NCBI GenBank assembly: GCA_963845755.1
Contig: CAWJTV010000016.1
Coordinates: 1 to 64,000, forward strand
DNA length: 64,000 bases
Origin: an uncultured Planctomycetota bacterium
GTDB taxonomy: Bacteria; Planctomycetota; Planctomycetia; Isosphaerales; Isosphaeraceae
Direction: 5' to 3'
Of the stretch, positions 606 through 40,600 are shown piece after piece. Each line of letters opens with the position of its first letter. The first letter of the stretch is position 1. The position numbers were made by a program, and so were the translations under genes. Below the pieces are notes generated by a model that was not told where the DNA came from, did not search any database, and worked only from the letters and a program-made list of their open reading frames with translations.

Positions 606-711
606 GGTGGTTGCCTCCTGACCGAGGAGGAAACCACGTAGTGAACAACCAAGCGAGAGGAGGCGGGAATTCTGATTGTCGCTGGGCGGGAATTCTAATT
701 GTCGCTAATCA
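1..711 (-). mobile_element. IS21-family element, left end plus 5' part of istA (runs off the window); inserted into a group II intron ORF
   Basis: Minus-strand end reads TGATTAGCGACAATTAGAATTCCCGCC. The GCGGGAATTCT(G/A)ATTGTCGCT motif is repeated in tandem at 663-706, as is typical of IS21 ends. RT-coding sequence begins immediately at 712. Confidence 0.85.
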
Positions 712-1241
712 GGGCAGGTGGAATAAAGTCAAAGCCCTGGTTTACCTGCTCACTCACTCATATAGTGGCCGGGCTCTGGCCATTCTACGAGTTATCAGCA
801 ATTCGGGTGCAAGAACTCCGGGCGTGGACGGAATCCTCTGGACCACGCCGGAGGCCAAGACGAGGGCCTTCAACGCCTTGCGTCGGCACGGCTATCAGCC
901 GCAACCGCTCCGCAGGGTGTACATTCCCAAGAGCAACGGCCGCCGCCGCGCCCTCGGGATTCCCACCATGGCCGATCGAGCTATGCAGGCCCTCCACCTG
1001 CTCGGTCTCGATCCCATCGCGGAATCTCAAGCCGACGGTCACTCCTATGGCTTTCGGTTGGAACGATGCTGCGCCGATGCTCTGGATCAATGTCACAAGA
1101 TCCTGAGGAATCCCACCGGTCCGAAATGGATTTTGGAAGGGGATATCAAAGCATGCTTTGATCAAATCAGCCATAACTGGCTGCTGGACCACATCCCCAT
1201 GGACAAGGACATGCTCAGGAAATGGTTGAAGGCCGGTTTCC

Positions 1242-2774
1242 GTAGCCGTTCACACCCCGAACAATTTGTACAGTTAGTTCGTATTACTGTATATGAGTCA
1301 GCAGCTTCCGATCCCTGAGCCACTCTGGAGCACCGTGCCCGAGGACGCGCAAGCCGCCCTCCTCGATGCCTGGAATGTGCTCCGGGATGAGATCGCCGAG
1401 TTGAAGACCACCGTGCGCGATCTCCGGGCCCGGCTCGGACTCAACTCGACGAATTCCTCCAAGCCCCCCTCTTCCGACCCGATCGGCCTGAAACGAAAGC
1501 CGCCGACTCCGCCTTCGCGGCGCAAACGCGGCGGACAACCCGGCCATCGCAAGGCGTTCCGCGCCCTGGTCCCTCCCGAGGAGCTCCGATCGTCCACCGA
1601 TCGTCGGCCCGGGGCCTGTCGTCGCTGCGGCCATGCGCTGCACGGCGAGGATCCCACACCCTTGATCCATCAGGTCGCCGACCTGCCCCGGATCGAGCCA
1701 CTCGTGGACGAATACCGGCTGCATCGGCTCGCTTGTCCGGACTGTGGGACGACCACGTGTGCGACCCTCCCCGAGGGGGTCTCCACCAGCCACTTCAGCC
1801 CGTACACTCAGGCCGTGCTGGCGACCCTGGCCGGCGCCTACCGCCTCAGCAAGCGGCAGATCCAGCAACTCGCCGGCGATCTGTTGGGGCTGTCGATCTC
1901 CACCGGGATGATCTCCAAGCTGGAGCGACAATCGGCCGCCGTGCTGGAGGCCCCCTATAACGAGCTGGCCGTCGCCGTCCACACGGCGGAGGTGATCCAT
2001 GCCGACGAGACCTCCTGGCGGGAGGAGCGGCGCAAGGCCTGGCTTTGGGCGGCGGTGACCGCGATGTTCACCGTCTTCACCATCGCCCGCAACCGCACCG
2101 CCAAGGTGGCCCGAGCGGTCCTGGGGACGCACGACGGCTCGATCGCGGTGACCGACCGTTGCAGTTCCTACGACTGGATCGCCGCGGCCGGCCGGCAGAT
2201 CTGCTGGAGCCATCTCCGCCGCGATTTCCAGGCGATGATCGACCGCGGCGGGGCGGCCGAACCGATCGGCCGACGACTGTTGAGGCTGTCGGATCGGTTG
2301 TACCGCTGGTGGCATCGCCTCGAGGCCGAGCGGGTGGATCGGGGGCGATTCCGCGCGACGATGACCCGGGTGAGGCGCGAGGTCAAAGCGGCGCTGGACG
2401 ACGGTGCGCGGTGCGGATGTCCGCGGACGCGCGGGATGTGCGCCGAGATCCTGCGCGTGGAGGGGAGCTTGTGGACCTTCGCGCGGGTCGAGGGGGTGCC
2501 TCCCGACAACAATGCGGCGGAGCGCCGCCGAGCGGCACGCCGTGATCTGGCGGCGGATCAGCGGGGGGACCGACAGGCGCAGGGGAGCCGGTTCGTCGAG
2601 CGGATGTTGACCGTGGTGGCCACGTGCCGGCAGCAGGGACGAGACGTGCTGGGCTACCTGACATCGTGCTTTGAAGCGGCTCGGAGCAACCAATCGATCC
2701 CCTCCCTCGTCCCGGTGACTCCACCAAAGATCGAGGCCGCCTAATTCCAGCTATCACGCCCCATGAACGGGTAC
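1242..2774 (+). mobile_element. IS66-family single-ORF element, copy 1
   Basis: Ends GTAGCCGTTCA...TGAACGGGTAC; 8-bp TSD CGGTTTCC at 1234-1241 and 2775-2782. Confidence 0.95.
1293..2744 (+). CDS. IS66-family transposase
   Basis: NSTNSSKPPSSD, GGQPGH, zinc ribbon, HADETSW, QICWSHLRRDF, PDNNAAER motifs. Confidence 0.93.
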   Translation: MSQQLPIPEPLWSTVPEDAQAALLDAWNVLRDEIAELKTTVRDLRARLGLNSTNSSKPPSSDPIGLKRKPPTPPSRRKRGGQPGHRKAFRALVPPEELRSSTDRRPGACRRCGHALHGEDPTPLIHQVADLPRIEPLVDEYRLHRLACPDCGTTTCATLPEGVSTSHFSPYTQAVLATLAGAYRLSKRQIQQLAGDLLGLSISTGMISKLERQSAAVLEAPYNELAVAVHTAEVIHADETSWREERRKAWLWAAVTAMFTVFTIARNRTAKVARAVLGTHDGSIAVTDRCSSYDWIAAAGRQICWSHLRRDFQAMIDRGGAAEPIGRRLLRLSDRLYRWWHRLEAERVDRGRFRATMTRVRREVKAALDDGARCGCPRTRGMCAEILRVEGSLWTFARVEGVPPDNNAAERRRAARRDLAADQRGDRQAQGSRFVERMLTVVATCRQQGRDVLGYLTSCFEAARSNQSIPSLVPVTPPKIEAA

Positions 2775-2835
2775 CGGTTTCCTGGAGAAGCAAGTTCTCT
2801 TCGCCACCACGGAAGGCACACCTCAAGGAGGGATC

Positions 2836-4479
2836 ATCACGCCCCCAACAATGTTGCAAAGAACCCTGTTGGGGGCCTCCCTCAAAAGGGGACGGACTGA
2901 TCCGATACACGATGCGGACCTCCTGCTCGTCGATCTCGACCTTCTTCACCAAAGCCCGAACGATCGCCCGTCGCGTGGCCCAGTCCGGCTCTTGCAACTC
3001 GTGGGAAACGCGTCTCGCGAACTCCTCCAACTGGCCGATCACCAGCCGCAGTTCGGCTTCCTGGTTGGCCTCGTCAATCTGCTGCCGACACTCATCCTCC
3101 AGTTTGGCCAGGCGCTCGCGCGCTGCCAAGATCCTCGGCTCGAACTCCGACTTGTTAAGTAATCCCTCGCCGTAGGCATCGATCAATCGAGCGATCATCT
3201 TTTTTAGATTCGCAATCAATTTGTTGAGATGCTTCACCTCGCGGTCTGGGCCTGTCTCCGGCCCGTGCAGCCGCCGTTCGTACTCCACTCGAACCCGTTC
3301 GGGCTCGGACAAGAGATGACGCACATCTTCCCAGACGGCGGCGTCCAAGACATCCGTGCGGACCTGCTTGTTCCAACACAGTCGCTGGCCACCGAAACGA
3401 TAGGCGTCGGAGCCGGTGCAGCGGTAGTAGGCGTAGGGGACCTTCCCCTTGGCCGAGGCCCGGCTCACCGGCTTGCCGTAGCAGCCGTAGCCGCACCGTT
3501 TGCAGACAACTAACCCCTGGAGGAGATAGCGGTCGCCACGGAGCCGTTCGCCCGGCGTTGCCGGTTCTCCTCGATTTGAGCTTGAACCATCCCGAAGAGT
3601 TCCTCGCTCACCAAACCGGGGACATCGATGAAGATTTGTTCTTGCGTGGATGTATCGACCCGAGAGACAGGACGCCGGGGCTGCTCAGGACGGCCGCGTT
3701 GCGCGCAGCCGCTTCGGCTTGAGGGCGCCCGCGCGCGTCTTGCCGAAACCGGCCGTCCCCTTGTAGGCAGGGTTCCTGAGATACGACCAGATCACCGAGC
3801 GGTCCCAGGCCGATTTGCCCGTCCGCGTGGGGACGCCGTCGCGTTGCAGACGTCGGCAAACCTCACCGATCGAGCATCGTTCCTGGCCGACCCACCCGAA
3901 GATCTTCCGCACGATCCGCGCCTCGTCGGCCACGACCTGATAACGCGCCGCGCCGCCGCCCTCATGCTTGCCGATGTAGCGGTAGCCATACGGCGCGCCG
4001 CTGAGCACGTTGACCGAGCCGTGGCGGGCGGCGTACTGCTTGCCTCGGCGACACCGCTCCATGATCTTGGCACGCTCGTATTCAGCGATCATGCCCTGGA
4101 CCTGCACAAGCAGGTTCTCTTCGGGTCCGTGACCCAGGGGATTGCGCAGGAAGACGACCTCAACGCCGCACCGGGCCAGTTCCTCGAGTATCAAAACCTG
4201 GTAGGCATATTTGCGCGAAAGTCGATCGGGATCGAGAATGTAGAGGCGATCGATGGTCCCAGCAGCGGCCTGGTCCCGAAGTCGTTCGAGGCCCGGGCGG
4301 ACCAGGGTATCCCCGGTGTAGCCATCGTCCACAAAGCACAGCTCGGGGGAGCATACCAAGCCGTCGCTCGCGACGCGCTGCCTGATCGCCTCAAGCTGGC
4401 TGGCGATCGTGTCCTCCTTGGACTGTTGGTCCCCGGAGACCCGGCCATAGGTCCCCACACAGAGATCGTGATTGAGCAT
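2836..4479 (-). CDS. Large serine recombinase (catalytic, recombinase, zinc-ribbon and coiled-coil domains); apparent frameshifts near 3550-3690
   Basis: YGRVSGDQQ, DDGYTG..RPGLERL, DRLSR, AEYERAKIMER, PYGY, YLLQGLVVCKRCG, YYRC. The reading frame runs out through the att site (LQHCWGRD). Confidence 0.9.
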
Positions 4480-4485
4480 GGCTGG

Positions 4486-4698
4486 TCAAGCTCCTCTGGC
4501 CTTTGATCGGAGTCCCTGCATCGTTGTGGTGGCCTGCTCGTTGTCGTGAGATCGCGATCGCGACCGTTCCAGGTGGCGAGAAACGACCGGGATCAAGGCC
4601 TGGTATGCCAGCGCGATCACCTCATCCTGAAACCGGGTGAACTCGAAATGGCGGGTGACGGGAGGGCTCAGGGCTGACCTCCGTTGAGATGTAATCAT
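4486..4698 (-). CDS. Small hypothetical protein upstream of the recombinase
   Basis: 70-aa ORF with a GGAGAGG RBS-like sequence; its stop lies 6 nt before the recombinase start; it is the only other ORF in the element. Confidence 0.55.
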   Translation of the reverse strand: MITSQRRSALSPPVTRHFEFTRFQDEVIALAYQALIPVVSRHLERSRSRSHDNEQATTTMQGLRSKARGA

Positions 4699-5861
4699 GT
4701 TGACTCATCCTCTCCAAGACCGCGGCTGTCAGCCTGCCTTGGACGGGGATCGAGCCCGGGCTGCCATCCTTGCCCATACTTCGGTCGGAGCCGCGATCTG
4801 GAAATGACAGAGTCAGGGATCAGGGACAGTTTTGCAACATTGTTGGGGGCGTGATCTCTCCTGCGCTGGCGAATCGGACGTTAGATGGGCTCCAGCAGTT
4901 GTTGGAGCAACGCTTTGGCACCCGAGGCCATCGGCGTGACGAAGCCAAGGTCCATCTGGTCCGCTATGCGGATGACTTCATCATCACCAGCACCTCACGA
5001 ATCCTCCTGCAACGCGAAGTCCAACCTCTCGTGGAACACTTCCTACGTCAGCGGGGTCTCGAACTCTCCCACGAGAAAACCAGGATCACGCATTTGGAGA
5101 ACGGCTTCGATTTCCTTGGCCAAACGGTCCGACGTTACCGCAGTGGCAAGGTCTTGACCAAGCCATCAAAACGAAGCGTCAAGACCTTCTTGACCAAGAT
5201 CCAGGAAACGATCGACAACTCGGGGAGCATGACGGCTGGAGACTTGATCCTGCGTTTGAACCAACAGATCAAAGGCTGGACCATGTACCATCGTTATGTC
5301 GCGAGTAAACGCACCTTCGCGACTGTGGACAACCGAATCTTCTGGAAGCTGAAACGATGGTGTCATCGACGCCATCCGCAGAAGAGTTGGAAGTGGATCA
5401 AGACGAAATACTTTCAACAAGTGGGTCACCGAGACTGGGTGTTCACGGGCACAATCCGTGACAGCACGGGCAAGGGCCGACCCATCCAGCTCATGAACGC
5501 CGTGGGAGCCAAAATCCTGCGGTGGGTGAAGATTCGGAGTGCCGCCAACCCCTACGATCCGGAGTGGGAACTCTACTTGGAAGAACGGCTGGCCTGGAAG
5601 CTCAGCCACACTCTGGCGGGTCGAGGACGGATCGAATATCTCTGGAAGGAACAGCAGGGACGTTGCGTGGTGTGCAGGCAAGCGCTTCACGCCGAAGAGC
5701 AACCCTGGCACATCCACCATCGGGTCTGGCGCAGTCACGGTGGCCAGGAGACGTGTGACAACCTGGAAGTGCTCCACGCCAACTGCCATCGACAAGTCCA
5801 CGCCCAGAAGCAATCGCTGAAGAACCCAGCCGCGTCCTGAGAGGGGCGTTAGTGAAGGCTT

Positions 5862-5936
5862 GAGCCGTATGAGGCGCAAGTCTCAAGTACGGTTCTTAGG
5901 GGGCGGGGAGACAGCAATGTCTCCCTGCTACCCGAC
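5862..5936 (+). ncRNA. Group II intron domains V and VI, 3' splice site
   Basis: GAGCCGTATGAG-GCGCAAG-TCTCAAGTACGGTTC (AGC triad) followed by the DVI hairpin, ending in AC. Confidence 0.9.
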
Positions 5937-37638: not shown

Positions 37639-40600
37639 TCACTTCTTTGGCCGTTCGGCGTCAACCGGTTTGTCCCGCGGCAACTCAAATGACTTTCCGG
37701 ATTGGTGCAGGACCAGCGCCAAGACCTTGCTCCCGCTGTCTTTCTTAAATGAGACTGCGACCGCGTTGGTGAGTACAAACTGCCAGCGCCCCTCCTTGTC
37801 GGGCTCCCTCAGCTCGAACACCAGTTGACTGGGAATATCCAGGGCCAGTTTCCCGCAGCGGAATACCACCTGGAACGGGGTGTTTTTGAATGGCCCGAAG
37901 TTCGCGTAATATGTGCCGATCAGCGGTTTCATCGTAGCCGTTCACACCCCGAACAATTTGTACAGTTAGTTCGTATTACTGTATATGAGTCAGCAGCTTC
38001 CGATCCCTGAGCCACTCTGGAGCACCGTGCCCGAGGACGCGCAAGCCGCCCTCCTCGATGCCTGGAATGTGCTCCGGGATGAGATCGCCGAGTTGAAGAC
38101 CACCGTGCGCGATCTCCGGGCCCGGCTCGGACTCAACTCGACGAATTCCTCCAAGCCCCCCTCTTCCGACCCGATCGGCCTGAAACGAAAGCCGCCGACT
38201 CCGCCTTCGCGGCGCAAACGCGGCGGACAACCCGGCCATCGCAAGGCGTTCCGCGCCCTGGTCCCTCCCGAGGAGCTCCGATCGTCCACCGATCGTCGGC
38301 CCGGGGCCTGTCGTCGCTGCGGCCATGCGCTGCACGGCGAGGATCCCACACCCTTGATCCATCAGGTCGCCGACCTGCCCCGGATCGAGCCACTCGTGGA
38401 CGAATACCGGCTGCATCGGCTCGCTTGTCCGGACTGTGGGACGACCACGTGTGCGACCCTCCCCGAGGGGGTCTCCACCAGCCACTTCAGCCCGTACACT
38501 CAGGCCGTGCTGGCGACCCTGGCCGGCGCCTACCGCCTCAGCAAGCGGCAGATCCAGCAACTCGCCGGCGATCTGTTGGGGCTGTCGATCTCCACCGGGA
38601 TGATCTCCAAGCTGGAGCGACAATCGGCCGCCGTGCTGGAGGCCCCCTATAACGAGCTGGCCGTCGCCGTCCACACGGCGGAGGTGATCCATGCCGACGA
38701 GACCTCCTGGCGGGAGGAGCGGCGCAAGGCCTGGCTTTGGGCGGCGGTGACCGCGATGTTCACCGTCTTCACCATCGCCCGCAACCGCACCGCCAAGGTG
38801 GCCCGAGCGGTCCTGGGGACGCACGACGGCTCGATCGCGGTGACCGACCGTTGCAGTTCCTACGACTGGATCGCCGCGGCCGGCCGGCAGATCTGCTGGA
38901 GCCATCTCCGCCGCGATTTCCAGGCGATGATCGACCGCGGCGGGGCGGCCGAACCGATCGGCCGACGACTGTTGAGGCTGTCGGATCGGTTGTACCGCTG
39001 GTGGCATCGCCTCGAGGCCGAGCGGGTGGATCGGGGGCGATTCGCGCGACGATGACCCGGGTGAGGCGCGAGGTCAAAGCGGCGCTGGACGACGGTGCGC
39101 GGTGCGGATGTCCGCGGACGCGCGGGATGTGCGCCGAGATCCTGCGCGTGGAGGGGAGCTTGTGGACCTTCGCGCGGGTCGAGGGGGTGCCTCCCGACAA
39201 CAATGCGGCGGAGCGCGCCGAGCGGCACGCCGTGATCTGGCGGCGGATCAGCGGGGGGACCGACAGGCGCAGGGGAGCCGGTTCGTCGAGCGGATGTTGA
39301 CCGTGGTGGCCACGTGCCGGCAGCAGGGACGAGACGTGCTGGGCTACCTGACATCGTGCTTTGAAGCGGCTCGGAGCAACCAATCGATCCCCTCCCTCGT
39401 CCCGGTGACTCCACCAAAGATCGAGGCCGCCTAATTCCAGCTATCACGCCCCATGAACGGGTACGTTTCATCTCATCCGGCACTTTGTTAACGCCCTCGC
39501 GCTGGAGCAGCGCATCCTGGATTGTCGTCTCCAACCGGATCGTGCTGACCTGGCCCCGCGATTGTGTGAAGTAACAGACGATCAGATTCTCCGCGGGAAA
39601 TGCCCAAGCACCTGTACCATCCGAACCGCCGTGGCCGATGGCCCTCACTTCCGTCCTGGTAGGACTTTCGCCGGGTGCGTAGAGCATGGACATTTGGCCG
39701 TATTGCGGCTTCATCCCGAAAAACCCGCATGGGTACGGCTCAACGCTTCCGAGTGCTTTCATCGGCGACTTGGGAGTCAGGATGCGGGCGATCGCCTCGT
39801 TTGAGAGCAGTCGTTTGCCACCGGCCATGCCGCTGTCCATCCACATCGCGAGGAAGCGGGCATAATCGGCAGGGGTGGAGTAGAGCGTCTGCGAGCCCCA
39901 CGCGAACGGATACAAGGGTGCTCCGCCCGGCTTCCAGATCCGCGTCCACTTCCCCGGGCTGCCGAAGTAAAGACTCGCAACGCGCTTCTTGCGCGGGTCG
40001 TCGGCCTTCGAGAGATAGAACGAGTCGGCCATCCCCAGCGGCTGCAGGATCCGCTCCGCGACGAAGCGGTCGATCGTCGTGCCGCTGATCCGTTCGACAA
40101 CGGCCGCCGCGGCGTCACTGCCAGCGTCTGAGTACCAGAACTTTTCGCCCGGCTTGAATTGTGGCCCTTTTTCCCCGATGGCTTTCGCCTGGGTTTGCAG
40201 GTCGGAGTACTGATCGATTCTTACCGTCATGATCGTCAGAGGCAATCCGCTCCGGTGTTGCAGGAGTTGCTCGATCGTGATGGCCTTCGATTTGTCGTTG
40301 TCGAATCCGGGTAGGTATTTCGCCACGGGGTCGTCCAGGCGCAGTTTCCCCTCGTCGGCCAGCATCTGCACGGCGACTCCCGTCAGCGGTTTGGTCATCG
40401 AACGGATGTTGAAGATCGTGCCGCGCTCCATGGCTCGTTTGTCTTCGCGATCGCGCGCTCCGTAGACCTCGTGCAAGATCGTCTTGCGGTTCTTGATGAT
40501 CAGGAGCTCGCCTCCGACGATCGTGCCGTTCCTCACGTACTCTTCCACCTCGCCGGCCACTCGGCGCACGGCCGCGGCCGAAACGCCCTGGCTTTCGGGT

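Follow-up and report, generated by a model that had tools for sequence, protein, structure and literature searches.

What moves a 2,020-bp element that splits the reverse transcriptase (RT) gene of a group II intron, and why does it sit at that point of the gene? The element occupies positions 2836-4855 of the window (i.e., the whole stretch of DNA analyzed, the first 64,000 nucleotides of contig CAWJTV010000016.1 from an uncultured Planctomycetota bacterium of the family Isosphaeraceae). Its only content is a gene for a large serine recombinase (LSR) and one open reading frame (ORF) of 70 amino acids. An earlier reading of the letters alone (here, the sequence-only reading) had proposed a hyperparasite that uses a conserved RT motif as its attachment site, attB, and this proposal gained support from LSRs that share the target down to 40% identity. 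We consider it highly probable that the element is an insertion sequence (IS)-like transposon that is moved by its own LSR and targeted to the RT motif, according to the mechanism proposed below as a whole. Because it inserts into intron RT genes, the element is a parasite of another mobile element.

An inverted-repeat scan of positions 2600 to 5100 reported seven inverted pairs, of which a single one was perfect. Its arms, 2836-2860 and 4831-4855 (25 nt each), were 100% complementary, and the remaining pairs matched at 76 to 92%. These arms are the 25-bp perfect inverted repeats that the sequence-only reading had described. Its further claim, that the joined ends form a 48-bp perfect palindrome centered on AT, holds for the window copy but not for many relatives, which carry one mismatch in the outer arm. 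The Pfam domains and the ORF list agreed with the gene content it had given, and the element ends at 4855. The 23-nt end repeat was nearly invariant among relatives with 70 to 100% LSR identity and was still recognizable at 49 to 55%. The minus strand of the left terminal inverted repeat (IRL) codes for the final in-element residues of the recombinase (..LQHCWGRD). A third copy of the end motif, at 2841-2876, is kept in relatives and forms a hairpin (as RNA or DNA; -27.6 kcal/mol, z -2.67) in the 3'-terminal part of the recombinase coding sequence. Its role could be that of an additional binding site or of an mRNA hairpin where the stop-less coding sequence ends. In one relative (L084, positions 4623-4668), the recombinase-side end repeat was doubled in tandem.

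The recombinase belongs to the LSR class, with a resolvase-type catalytic domain that contains the nucleophile serine and with recombinase and zinc-ribbon domains that include a coiled coil. Pfam matched Resolvase (PF00239, 7e-27, residues 10-154), Recombinase (PF07508, 4.9e-12 and 1.4e-15), and Zn_ribbon_recom (PF13408, 1.6e-10), and the catalytic motif R13-V14-S15..Q18-Q19 was invariant in five of five aligned relatives. In a structural model of one homologue, P0022, long helices (residues 283-363) lie behind the zinc ribbon, in keeping with an embedded coiled coil. A PDB search with the LSR returned TP901-1 (4.7e-8, the best match), SPbeta SprA (2e-7), the N-terminal domain of TnpX (4e-5), and the C-terminal domain of A118 (2e-4), and its scores against the XisF, CcrB, and CcrC models were far under their cutoffs. 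Judged by these similarities, the LSR is remote from characterized integrases.

The host of the element is a genuine group II intron, with a domain V/VI and RT, maturase, and HNH regions. The downstream RT piece matched RVT_1 (9.9e-14), GIIM (4.6e-22), and HNH (3.2e-8) in Pfam. The element interrupts the RT motif at PQGGI/ISP (the slash marks the insertion point). Joining the flanks without the element and one AT copy gave an open RT frame, GFLEKQVLFATTEGTPQGGIISPALANRTLDG...YADD (i.e., ..GTPQGGIISPALAN..YADD). The corresponding uninterrupted DNA, CCTCAAGGAGGGATC AT CTCTCCT, was present three times in the same genome (contigs C13, C17, and C45), and these three intact intron copies confirm the in-frame empty site that the sequence-only reading had reconstructed. 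Intact motif sites in the genome numbered 15, with the centers AT (3), GT (5), GC (6), and AC (1). In the RT insertions, here and in relatives, the element enters the Ile/Val codon that separates PQGG from SP, at its first two bases.

The source genome assembly (14.3 Mb, 49 contigs) contained six full-length matches at 95 to 100% identity, four of which were 99.6 to 100% identical. They accounted for 12 end repeats, without solo ends. All 12 flanks were either an RT upstream half (..PQG[GS]x) or an RT downstream half ((I)SPxLAN..), representing at least four intron types, and two copies within one intron type lay in opposite orientations. Another contig begins with a second, inverted assembly of the first 5.1 kb of the window contig, which differs in its indels (99.79% identity). 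Because this double assembly looks like a dovetail overlap, the copies on C16 and C24 are probably one locus, hence probably five loci in all. The number and placement of the copies indicate that the element is a multicopy transposon.

Three arrangements around the insertion sites were also recorded in this genome. At C6:31937-33955, the upstream halves of two different RT genes face each other around a copy, through either a rearrangement or recombination between copies or a misassembly. At C47:6600-20400, four copies of one intron type follow each other at a spacing of ~3.8 kb, with one of them occupied by the element. Two contigs, at the end of C29 (460272) and the start of C38, break exactly at the RT-motif insertion point. 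Occupied and empty introns probably make the assembly graph fork at this point, so that more copies than those assembled may exist.

Close LSRs were found in 7 of the 61 related genomes searched (the source genome counted), and a scan of genome records gave 80 related loci. The records at 70 to 100% LSR identity were titled Singulisphaera, Isosphaeraceae, or Planctomycetaceae, with many copies per long-read metagenome-assembled genome (MAG); the record of Singulisphaera sp. PoT, a cultured carrier, has a single intact copy, inserted in an RT gene (L050). Those at 49 to 55% were Desulfamplus, Planctomycetaceae SH139, Pirellulaceae, and Gemmatimonadaceae, and those at 33 to 40% were Alphaproteobacteria, Vicinamibacterales, and others. 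Among 103 junctions with enough flanking sequence, 41 bordered an RT upstream half, 39 bordered an RT downstream half, and 23 bordered other sequences. These 80 junctions, together with the flanks in the source genome, bear out the prediction that homologous LSRs would be flanked by RT genes split at PQGGxxSP. Clean RT insertions made up 33 of the 49 complete elements (32 by regular expression and one by eye, in which an indel hid the motif). Both orientations occurred, again as foreseen, with the LSR codirectional with the RT in 19 and antisense in 14. The clean insertions represented 23 distinct target contexts in records of Planctomycetota, Desulfobacterota, Gemmatimonadota, and Pseudomonadota, with the target consensus ga.GG.AC.CC.CAaGGcGg.gtg-NN-ctc.CC..TgcTggC.AAcaTctt. 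LSRs at 40 to 55% identity with diverged ends reached the same RT codon; these include the SH139 elements and an alphaproteobacterial MAG element (40% LSR identity, different end repeats), which splits ..GTPQGGV / I SPILSNIFLHH in both orientations.

The association with RT genes could have been inherited if a few chance insertions were multiplied by retrohoming of the composite intron, with RT supplied in trans. Such hitchhiking, which the sequence-only reading had raised as a possibility, agrees with the many copies per genome in one intron type and with ten loci of one long-read MAG that share GMGTPQGAP/ISPLLSNIYMRR. It does not agree with 23 RT contexts that differ in codon usage, come from four phyla, and are all cut at the same codon, nor with both orientations within one intron type or the coexistence of empty and occupied intron copies. 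Two occupied type-B introns were also not nearest relatives in a crude distance table, which is blurred by nonintron flanks and is weakly informative. We regard hitchhiking as very improbable.

The dinucleotides beside the repeats bear on how the element enters its target. AT was found at 80 of the 103 junctions. The 32 clean pairs comprised 24 AT/AT pairs, seven with one non-AT side (GT, GC, or AA), one CT/CT pair, and no GT/GT pair. One intron type has five empty copies, all reading ATC GTC TCC; its two occupied copies show GT on the upstream side of the element and AT on the downstream side. The reciprocal arrangement (AT upstream, GT downstream) was seen in both occupied copies of a Desulfamplus MAG, in which the empty site reads GTT GTT TCA. 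Since the flanking dinucleotides disagree at non-AT targets, they do not behave as a target duplication, which is consistent with the crossover at the palindrome center suggested by the sequence-only reading. Occupied sites equal the empty site with one element added, in agreement with a conservative exchange of 2 bp without duplication.

A conventional inverted-repeat element resembling a miniature inverted-repeat transposable element (MITE) would also show perfect terminal inverted repeats with AT on both sides, as in the window copy. In that case, a DDE transposase would act in trans and leave a 2-bp AT/TA target duplication, and the LSR would be cargo or a resolvase. However, GT/AT, AT/GT, and GC/AT flanks at non-AT targets are impossible by duplication. 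No DDE gene was present in any of the 49 complete elements, in which only the LSR and the small ORF are conserved. Additionally, the end repeats encode LSR residues, and the element contains three copies of the half-site motif. We consider this origin extremely improbable, the least credible of the alternatives weighed here.

In the mechanism that we propose, the LSR would cut the element out as a circle, whose joined ends would form a palindromic attP centered on AT. LSR dimers would bind this attP and the quasi-palindromic RT motif GG.AC.CC.CA.GG....-NN-...CC..T..T.GC.AA, cut both sites with a 2-nt stagger, and exchange the halves. Orientation would be random because attP and its AT center are symmetric. 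A one-base mismatch in the overlap (target GT versus element AT) would be tolerated, and replication would resolve it into GT/AT or AT/GT pairs. We infer circle formation and activity from the sequence comparisons. A TC crossover placed one base off-center, which would yield GT/AT pairs without a mismatch, was rejected, since cleavage of the palindrome must be symmetric; AC and GT junctions at C6, L050, L087, and L089 also contradict it.

Several results weigh against this mechanism or against strict targeting. To our knowledge, a mismatch between the central dinucleotides keeps canonical serine integrases from completing recombination, and the 7 mismatched pairs among 32 would need unusual tolerance or a change after insertion. 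No circle junction or excision product of the window element was present in the contigs of four public soil runs. A single skip joint (2835 to 4854, one contig of the soil runs) may derive from the three intact intron copies. The joined-end junction pattern was found in 0 of 121 family genomes and is therefore not a normal chromosomal arrangement. Five of the 49 complete elements had two halves of the same kind (three of them on short MAG contigs that are possibly chimeric), and 10 sat in non-RT sites, with one more bordered by a single weak RT-like half. RT specificity is thus a strong preference and not absolute. Moreover, the insertion counts include many copies per genome, often in one intron type, and do not represent independent events, so that the argument for target choice rests on the variety of contexts.

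Some of the non-RT sites look like one consensus half, or like the half-site of the element itself. One such site recurred within a MAG (L079, L099, L109, and L110) as GGGCTGACGCCCCAGGCTAATGCA-AT-GACGCCCCCTCCGGGGGCTC, occupied in both orientations, and its GACGCCCCCTCCGGGGGCTC half mimics the element half-site. Separately, two elements on one MAG contig (L069 and L085, 15 kb apart and inverted) had RT flanks reciprocally swapped relative to L063/L065 and L083, which points to an inversion between two copies.

All six assembled copies in the source genome showed at least one frame break in the LSR gene. With the host intron broken by two other elements as well, the window copy, or the whole family in this genome, might be a dead relic, i.e., a frameshifted LSR in a junkyard intron. 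Yet the breaks lie at differing places among near-identical copies and in G/C runs, and the doubly assembled locus differs between its two versions at the breaks. Contigs from public soil metagenome runs carried an extra G behind 3551 (four of four runs) and an extra GC behind 3700 (three of four runs), which together restore the frame. The two LSR frameshifts of the window are assembly errors, and the frameshift correction of the LSR that the sequence-only reading had called for is needless. Given also the identity of the copies (98 to 100%, and 99.6 to 100% among four of them), we judge a dead relic improbable.

The insertion destroys the RT frame, and a precise excision would restore it. 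Both points would suit the reversible switch of intron mobility that the sequence-only reading had suggested, i.e., an on/off insertion domesticated to the benefit of the host or the intron. On the other hand, the genome contains the same intron in both intact and occupied form, so that an RT is available in trans. With its multiple copies, pseudo-sites, and rearrangements, the family behaves like a selfish element, and a sister clade treats the istB gene of IS21 likewise. The probability of a domesticated switch is very small, slightly below that of hitchhiking.

The small ORF is the second conserved component. It is preceded by a conserved ribosome-binding site (AGGAGGAG), its variable sites number 60/42/81 by codon position, with the most at third positions, and it has a counterpart in fam2, a second LSR mini-element family of the source genome (the family of the window element is called fam1 below). 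Pfam and NCBIfam contained no family for it, and in the ESM Atlas its best score was 0.88, with unnamed clusters. In a model of the complex, residues 9-37 of the small protein lie on LSR residues 376-406 and 493-534, and a strand pairs with the last LSR strand before the repeat. The complex score was 0.63, versus 0.00 for the best of three controls; among reference cases, this mark is attained in 116 of 157 solved complexes and in 2 of 215 mismatched pairs. Three runs had at least 70% of contacts in common, with a partner pLDDT of at least 53. The modeling supports binding of the small protein to the LSR and makes the ORF a candidate accessory or directionality factor. Directionality factors on solved integrases act at the C-terminal region, as modeled here. 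More tentatively, the cotranscribed small protein may dock on the C-terminal LSR region at the base of the coiled coil, as directionality factors do.

The recombinase gene does not end within the element. Its frame had no stop before the element end in eight of nine loci examined, an Alteromonadaceae pair being the exception, and members of fam1, fam2, Desulfamplus, Pirellulaceae, SH139, the alphaproteobacterial group, and Vicinamibacterales were all stop-less. Database homologues extended 2 to 373 residues (median, 40) past HCWGR, read from the adjoining flank. One of them, P0049 (423 aa), runs from the LSR C terminus in frame into the downstream part of an RT (..HCWGRD-FSPLLANIVL..), the flank supplying the end of the protein. 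Across the joined ends, 17 of 18 fam1 sequences kept 52 open codons and the remaining one kept 50, up to the ATGA of the small ORF; the Desulfamplus frame ran open for 67 codons. The segment so added (the tail) contains no in-frame ATG, GTG, or TTG and is in frame with the LSR only across the junction between IRL and the right terminal inverted repeat (IRR). Neither Pfam nor NCBIfam had a match for it. The lack of an in-element stop and the open frame across the joined ends would place attP inside the LSR gene.

Is this frame used? It might be incidental, with the LSR ending at the first stop of the flank and no circle-specific form of the protein, and the conserved sequence inside IRR might be a promoter or a subterminal binding site. 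We hold this combined reading to be unlikely, although considerably less so than the alternatives considered above. The in-element stop is missing in all groups, at 33 to 100% identity, except in the Alteromonadaceae pair. Over 17 fam1 sequences, the junction frame contained 1 stop, versus 20 and 25 in the other two frames. High G+C content favors long open frames, and the chance of 52 open codons is estimated at ~20%. The 67 open codons in Desulfamplus lie in DNA that looks A+T rich by eye. The tail has no start codon, and amino acid motifs in it are kept where the DNA has diverged. Fam1, Desulfamplus, Pirellulaceae, and Gemmatimonadaceae have LRPxYGxGW in common, and the block LIPD(S/T)VI..SRLR is common to fam1 and fam2, with four of five DNA differences at third codon positions (by eye). 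In one homologue, P0022 (472 aa; metagenome contig of 1,509 nt), a single ORF encodes ..QHCWGRD-HAPNNVAK..RLRPKYGQGWQP.., so that DNA with joined ends exists. On the metagenome contig L130, a palindrome with the center AG lies within an LSR ORF, followed by the small ORF and the LSR start; its ends overlap with mismatches, and it is either a circular permutation or a tandem. We rejected L130 as the circle junction of the window element itself, since it belongs to a related element. A junction match in a viral collection (L131) was also rejected as a chance GC-box palindrome, on a contig whose start resembles an adenovirus terminal repeat.

Other results speak for an incidental frame. The synonymous fraction in the fam1 tail was 0.36, versus 0.27 and 0.28 in the other frames, which is a modest signal. 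The tail motif was absent from two groups (i.e., the alphaproteobacterial and L130 tails), and P0022 alone among 113 listed homologues spanned the junction. An AlphaFold2 model of P0022 (from a mixed alignment) had a mean pLDDT of 62.8 and a pLDDT of 22 to 42 in the tail, for which it is uninformative. On the metagenome contig L130, a palindrome with the center AG lies within an LSR ORF, followed by the small ORF and the LSR start; its ends overlap with mismatches, and it is either a circular permutation or a tandem. We rejected L130 as the circle junction of the window element itself, since it belongs to a related element. A junction match in a viral collection (L131) was also rejected as a chance GC-box palindrome, on a contig whose start resembles an adenovirus terminal repeat.

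If the frame is used, the LSR made from an integrated copy would end in whatever residues the flank encodes, and the conserved tail of 26 to 67 amino acids would be encoded by the circle alone. The tail and the small protein together may set the direction of the reaction. These two steps are more tentative than the exchange itself. They form part of a wider reading that we put forward tentatively and consider not quite an even prospect: a state-sensing recombinase with attP in its gene would be tail-less when integrated and would have built-in control of excision and integration, and its clade would consist of specialized hyperparasites of mobile-element motifs. In the model, the tail would directly follow the β-strand on which the small, directionality factor-like protein is predicted to dock. 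The landing pads would be PQGGxxSP of intron RTs, DRLLHH..SYR of IS21 IstB, and a palindromic repeat.

The last two landing pads come from other branches of the clade. Vicinamibacterales elements (L114-L126; 2.86 kb, LSR identity of ~35%, several copies per genome) split IS21 istB between ..DRLLHH.. and ..SYR.., at profile position 222-224 of 238, and the split genes matched IstB_IS21 at 3.6e-72 and 1.2e-70. These elements have an extra 1.2 kb upstream of the LSR. In a quick midpoint-rooted tree, to which we give low weight, RT-targeting groups surround the IstB-targeting group; frameshifted rows gave long branches, and labels assigned by a crude regular expression are probably wrong for L079 ("IstB") and L119 ("RT"). 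Fam2 is related to fam1 at ~67% nucleotide and ~48% amino acid identity, with six copies (C42:185878-187483, C11:827481-829086, C11:819791-821395, C18:9665-11271, C20:3537-5093, and C13:234826-236434). Its end motif is ..CCCCAACAG.GTGGCAT, and it has a stop-less recombinase and a related small ORF as in fam1. Each copy lies within a palindromic repeat that resembles a MITE or a repetitive extragenic palindromic (REP) sequence, and four empty sites of this repeat were found.

Table 1. Positions in the window of the features of the LSR element and of the group II intron that it interrupts
Feature	Positions	Strand	Content
5' intron part with RT N-terminal region	711..1241	+	Same group II intron
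Upstream target half	2775..2835	+	RT codons ..GFLEKQVLFATTEGTPQGGI
Left terminal inverted repeat (IRL)	2836..2860		AT crossover dinucleotide 2836-2837 (proposed) and 23-nt arm 2838-2860
LSR gene body	2836..4479	-	Resolvase, Recombinase, Zn_ribbon_recom; no in-element stop
Third end-motif copy	2841..2876		Inner arm 2862-2876, inverted relative to 2841-2855 (87% pair)
Conserved 70-aa ORF	4486..4698	-	Core FEFTRLQ.QLIALAYQALIPVV; stop 6 nt before LSR ATG
Tail segment	4695..4853	-	52 codons (HAPNNVAK..SLIPDSVISRSRLRPKYGQGWQP..) and TGA overlapping the small-ORF ATG
Right terminal inverted repeat (IRR)	4831..4855		Arm 4831-4853 and AT crossover dinucleotide 4854-4855 (proposed)
Downstream target half and rest of intron-encoded protein	4856..5840	+	(I)SPALANRTLDG..YADD.., then maturase, HNH
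Group II intron domain V/VI	5860..5936	+	Rfam Intron_gpII RF00029, 62.8 bits (gathering score, 40)

The intron copy in the window was struck by three different mobile elements, i.e., the LSR element, an IS66-family element, and an IS21-like element. The IS66-family element (DDE_Tnp_IS66, DUF6444, and zf-IS66) at 1242-2774 splits the same RT gene, and copies of it elsewhere are 99.7 to 99.9% identical, including one at 37924-39464 of the window. Its transposase shows compensating frameshifts that resemble the same type of assembly error. Positions 1-711 are the end of a multicopy IS21-like element that adjoins the intron, with at least nine other copies at 98 to 100% identity.

The element would add a second kind of serine-recombinase insertion sequence, based on an LSR, beside IS607. 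It exemplifies a DNA transposon family that lives on retroelements, through the DNA that codes for their most conserved protein motif. Such a target is hard to mutate away and harmless to the host. The natural target variants (at least 23), the symmetric attP, and the apparent tolerance of mismatches bear on how LSRs read DNA and on polarity. With its 48-bp site and 70-aa partner, the compact recombinase is an obvious candidate for the recombinase toolbox. If the recombinase gene proved complete in the circle only, this would represent a way of controlling directionality that is new for bacteria.

Among known systems, the clostridial transposons Tn4451/Tn4453 (TnpX) and Tn5397 (TndX) are comparable in being moved by an LSR with a 2-bp overlap and without target duplication, which we propose for the window element too. 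In these transposons, the LSR alone excises a circle, which reinserts. They are several to tens of kilobases long, carry resistance, mobilization, or conjugation cargo, and have GA at both ends. In contrast, the window element is 2 kb long and cargo-free, has long, near-perfect inverted ends centered on AT, and targets a coding motif of another mobile element, and its gene crosses the element end. PMC10083194 describes a clade of LSR "transposases" and reports DUF4368 in 63% of LSRs of the multitargeting clade, the TndX-like subfamily included. Pfam did not find DUF4368 in either LSR piece of the window, and the term "reverse transcriptase" has 0 mentions in the main text of that survey (PMC10083194).

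Bxb1, PhiC31, SPbeta SprA, and A118 have the same domain set as the window LSR and likewise use a conserved coding site as attB. Their small partner acts at the C-terminal region, where ours is placed by modeling. Integrases of phages and integrative and conjugative elements (ICEs) serve large elements that occur once per genome, are unidirectional without a directionality factor, and have an asymmetric central dinucleotide that must match. The window element, in contrast, is multicopy, has a symmetric AT, inserts in both orientations with mismatches apparently tolerated, and targets a mobile element. Elements of the IS110/IS1111 family, with DEDD enzymes, target REP or attC sites. They resemble the window element in being multicopy and in using a selectively "safe" landing sequence, but their targets are noncoding repeats, whereas the target here is a conserved coding motif of a class of retroelements. 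DDE insertion sequences differ from the window element, which has no DDE domain and whose flanking dinucleotides disagree in six of the eight clean pairs with at least one non-AT junction. The literature that we searched did not describe any LSR element located in intron RT or istB genes.

For the split gene, the closest published parallel by analogy is the "suicidal" tyrosine integrases of the SSV1 type, from archaeal viruses and plasmids. As reviewed in PMC8371274, their site lies within their own gene and only the free circle codes for the whole protein; they occur in Archaea only, and integration parts the N-terminal portion from the catalytic domain and inactivates the gene. The likeness is an attachment site inside the recombinase coding sequence, placed here by sequence, with a tail that is predicted. 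Unlike these archaeal tyrosine recombinases (Phage_integr_3), the window element has a bacterial serine recombinase that would lose only its last 26 to 67 residues.

Finally, IS607-family elements are minimal serine-recombinase insertion sequences with a circular intermediate and no target duplication, according to PMC6188088 and PMC4058570. These papers describe TnpA as a small serine recombinase whose DNA-binding domain is N-terminal, and the elements as lacking terminal inverted repeats and showing little target specificity (PMC6188088, PMC4058570). The window element, in contrast, has the LSR domain set and 25-nt perfect inverted repeats, and its recombinase scored 21.1 bits against the IS607 model NF033518 (cutoff, 110). 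The element thus resembles the clostridial LSR transposons in its working, as proposed here, and IS607 in its size, and it departs from the defining features of both.

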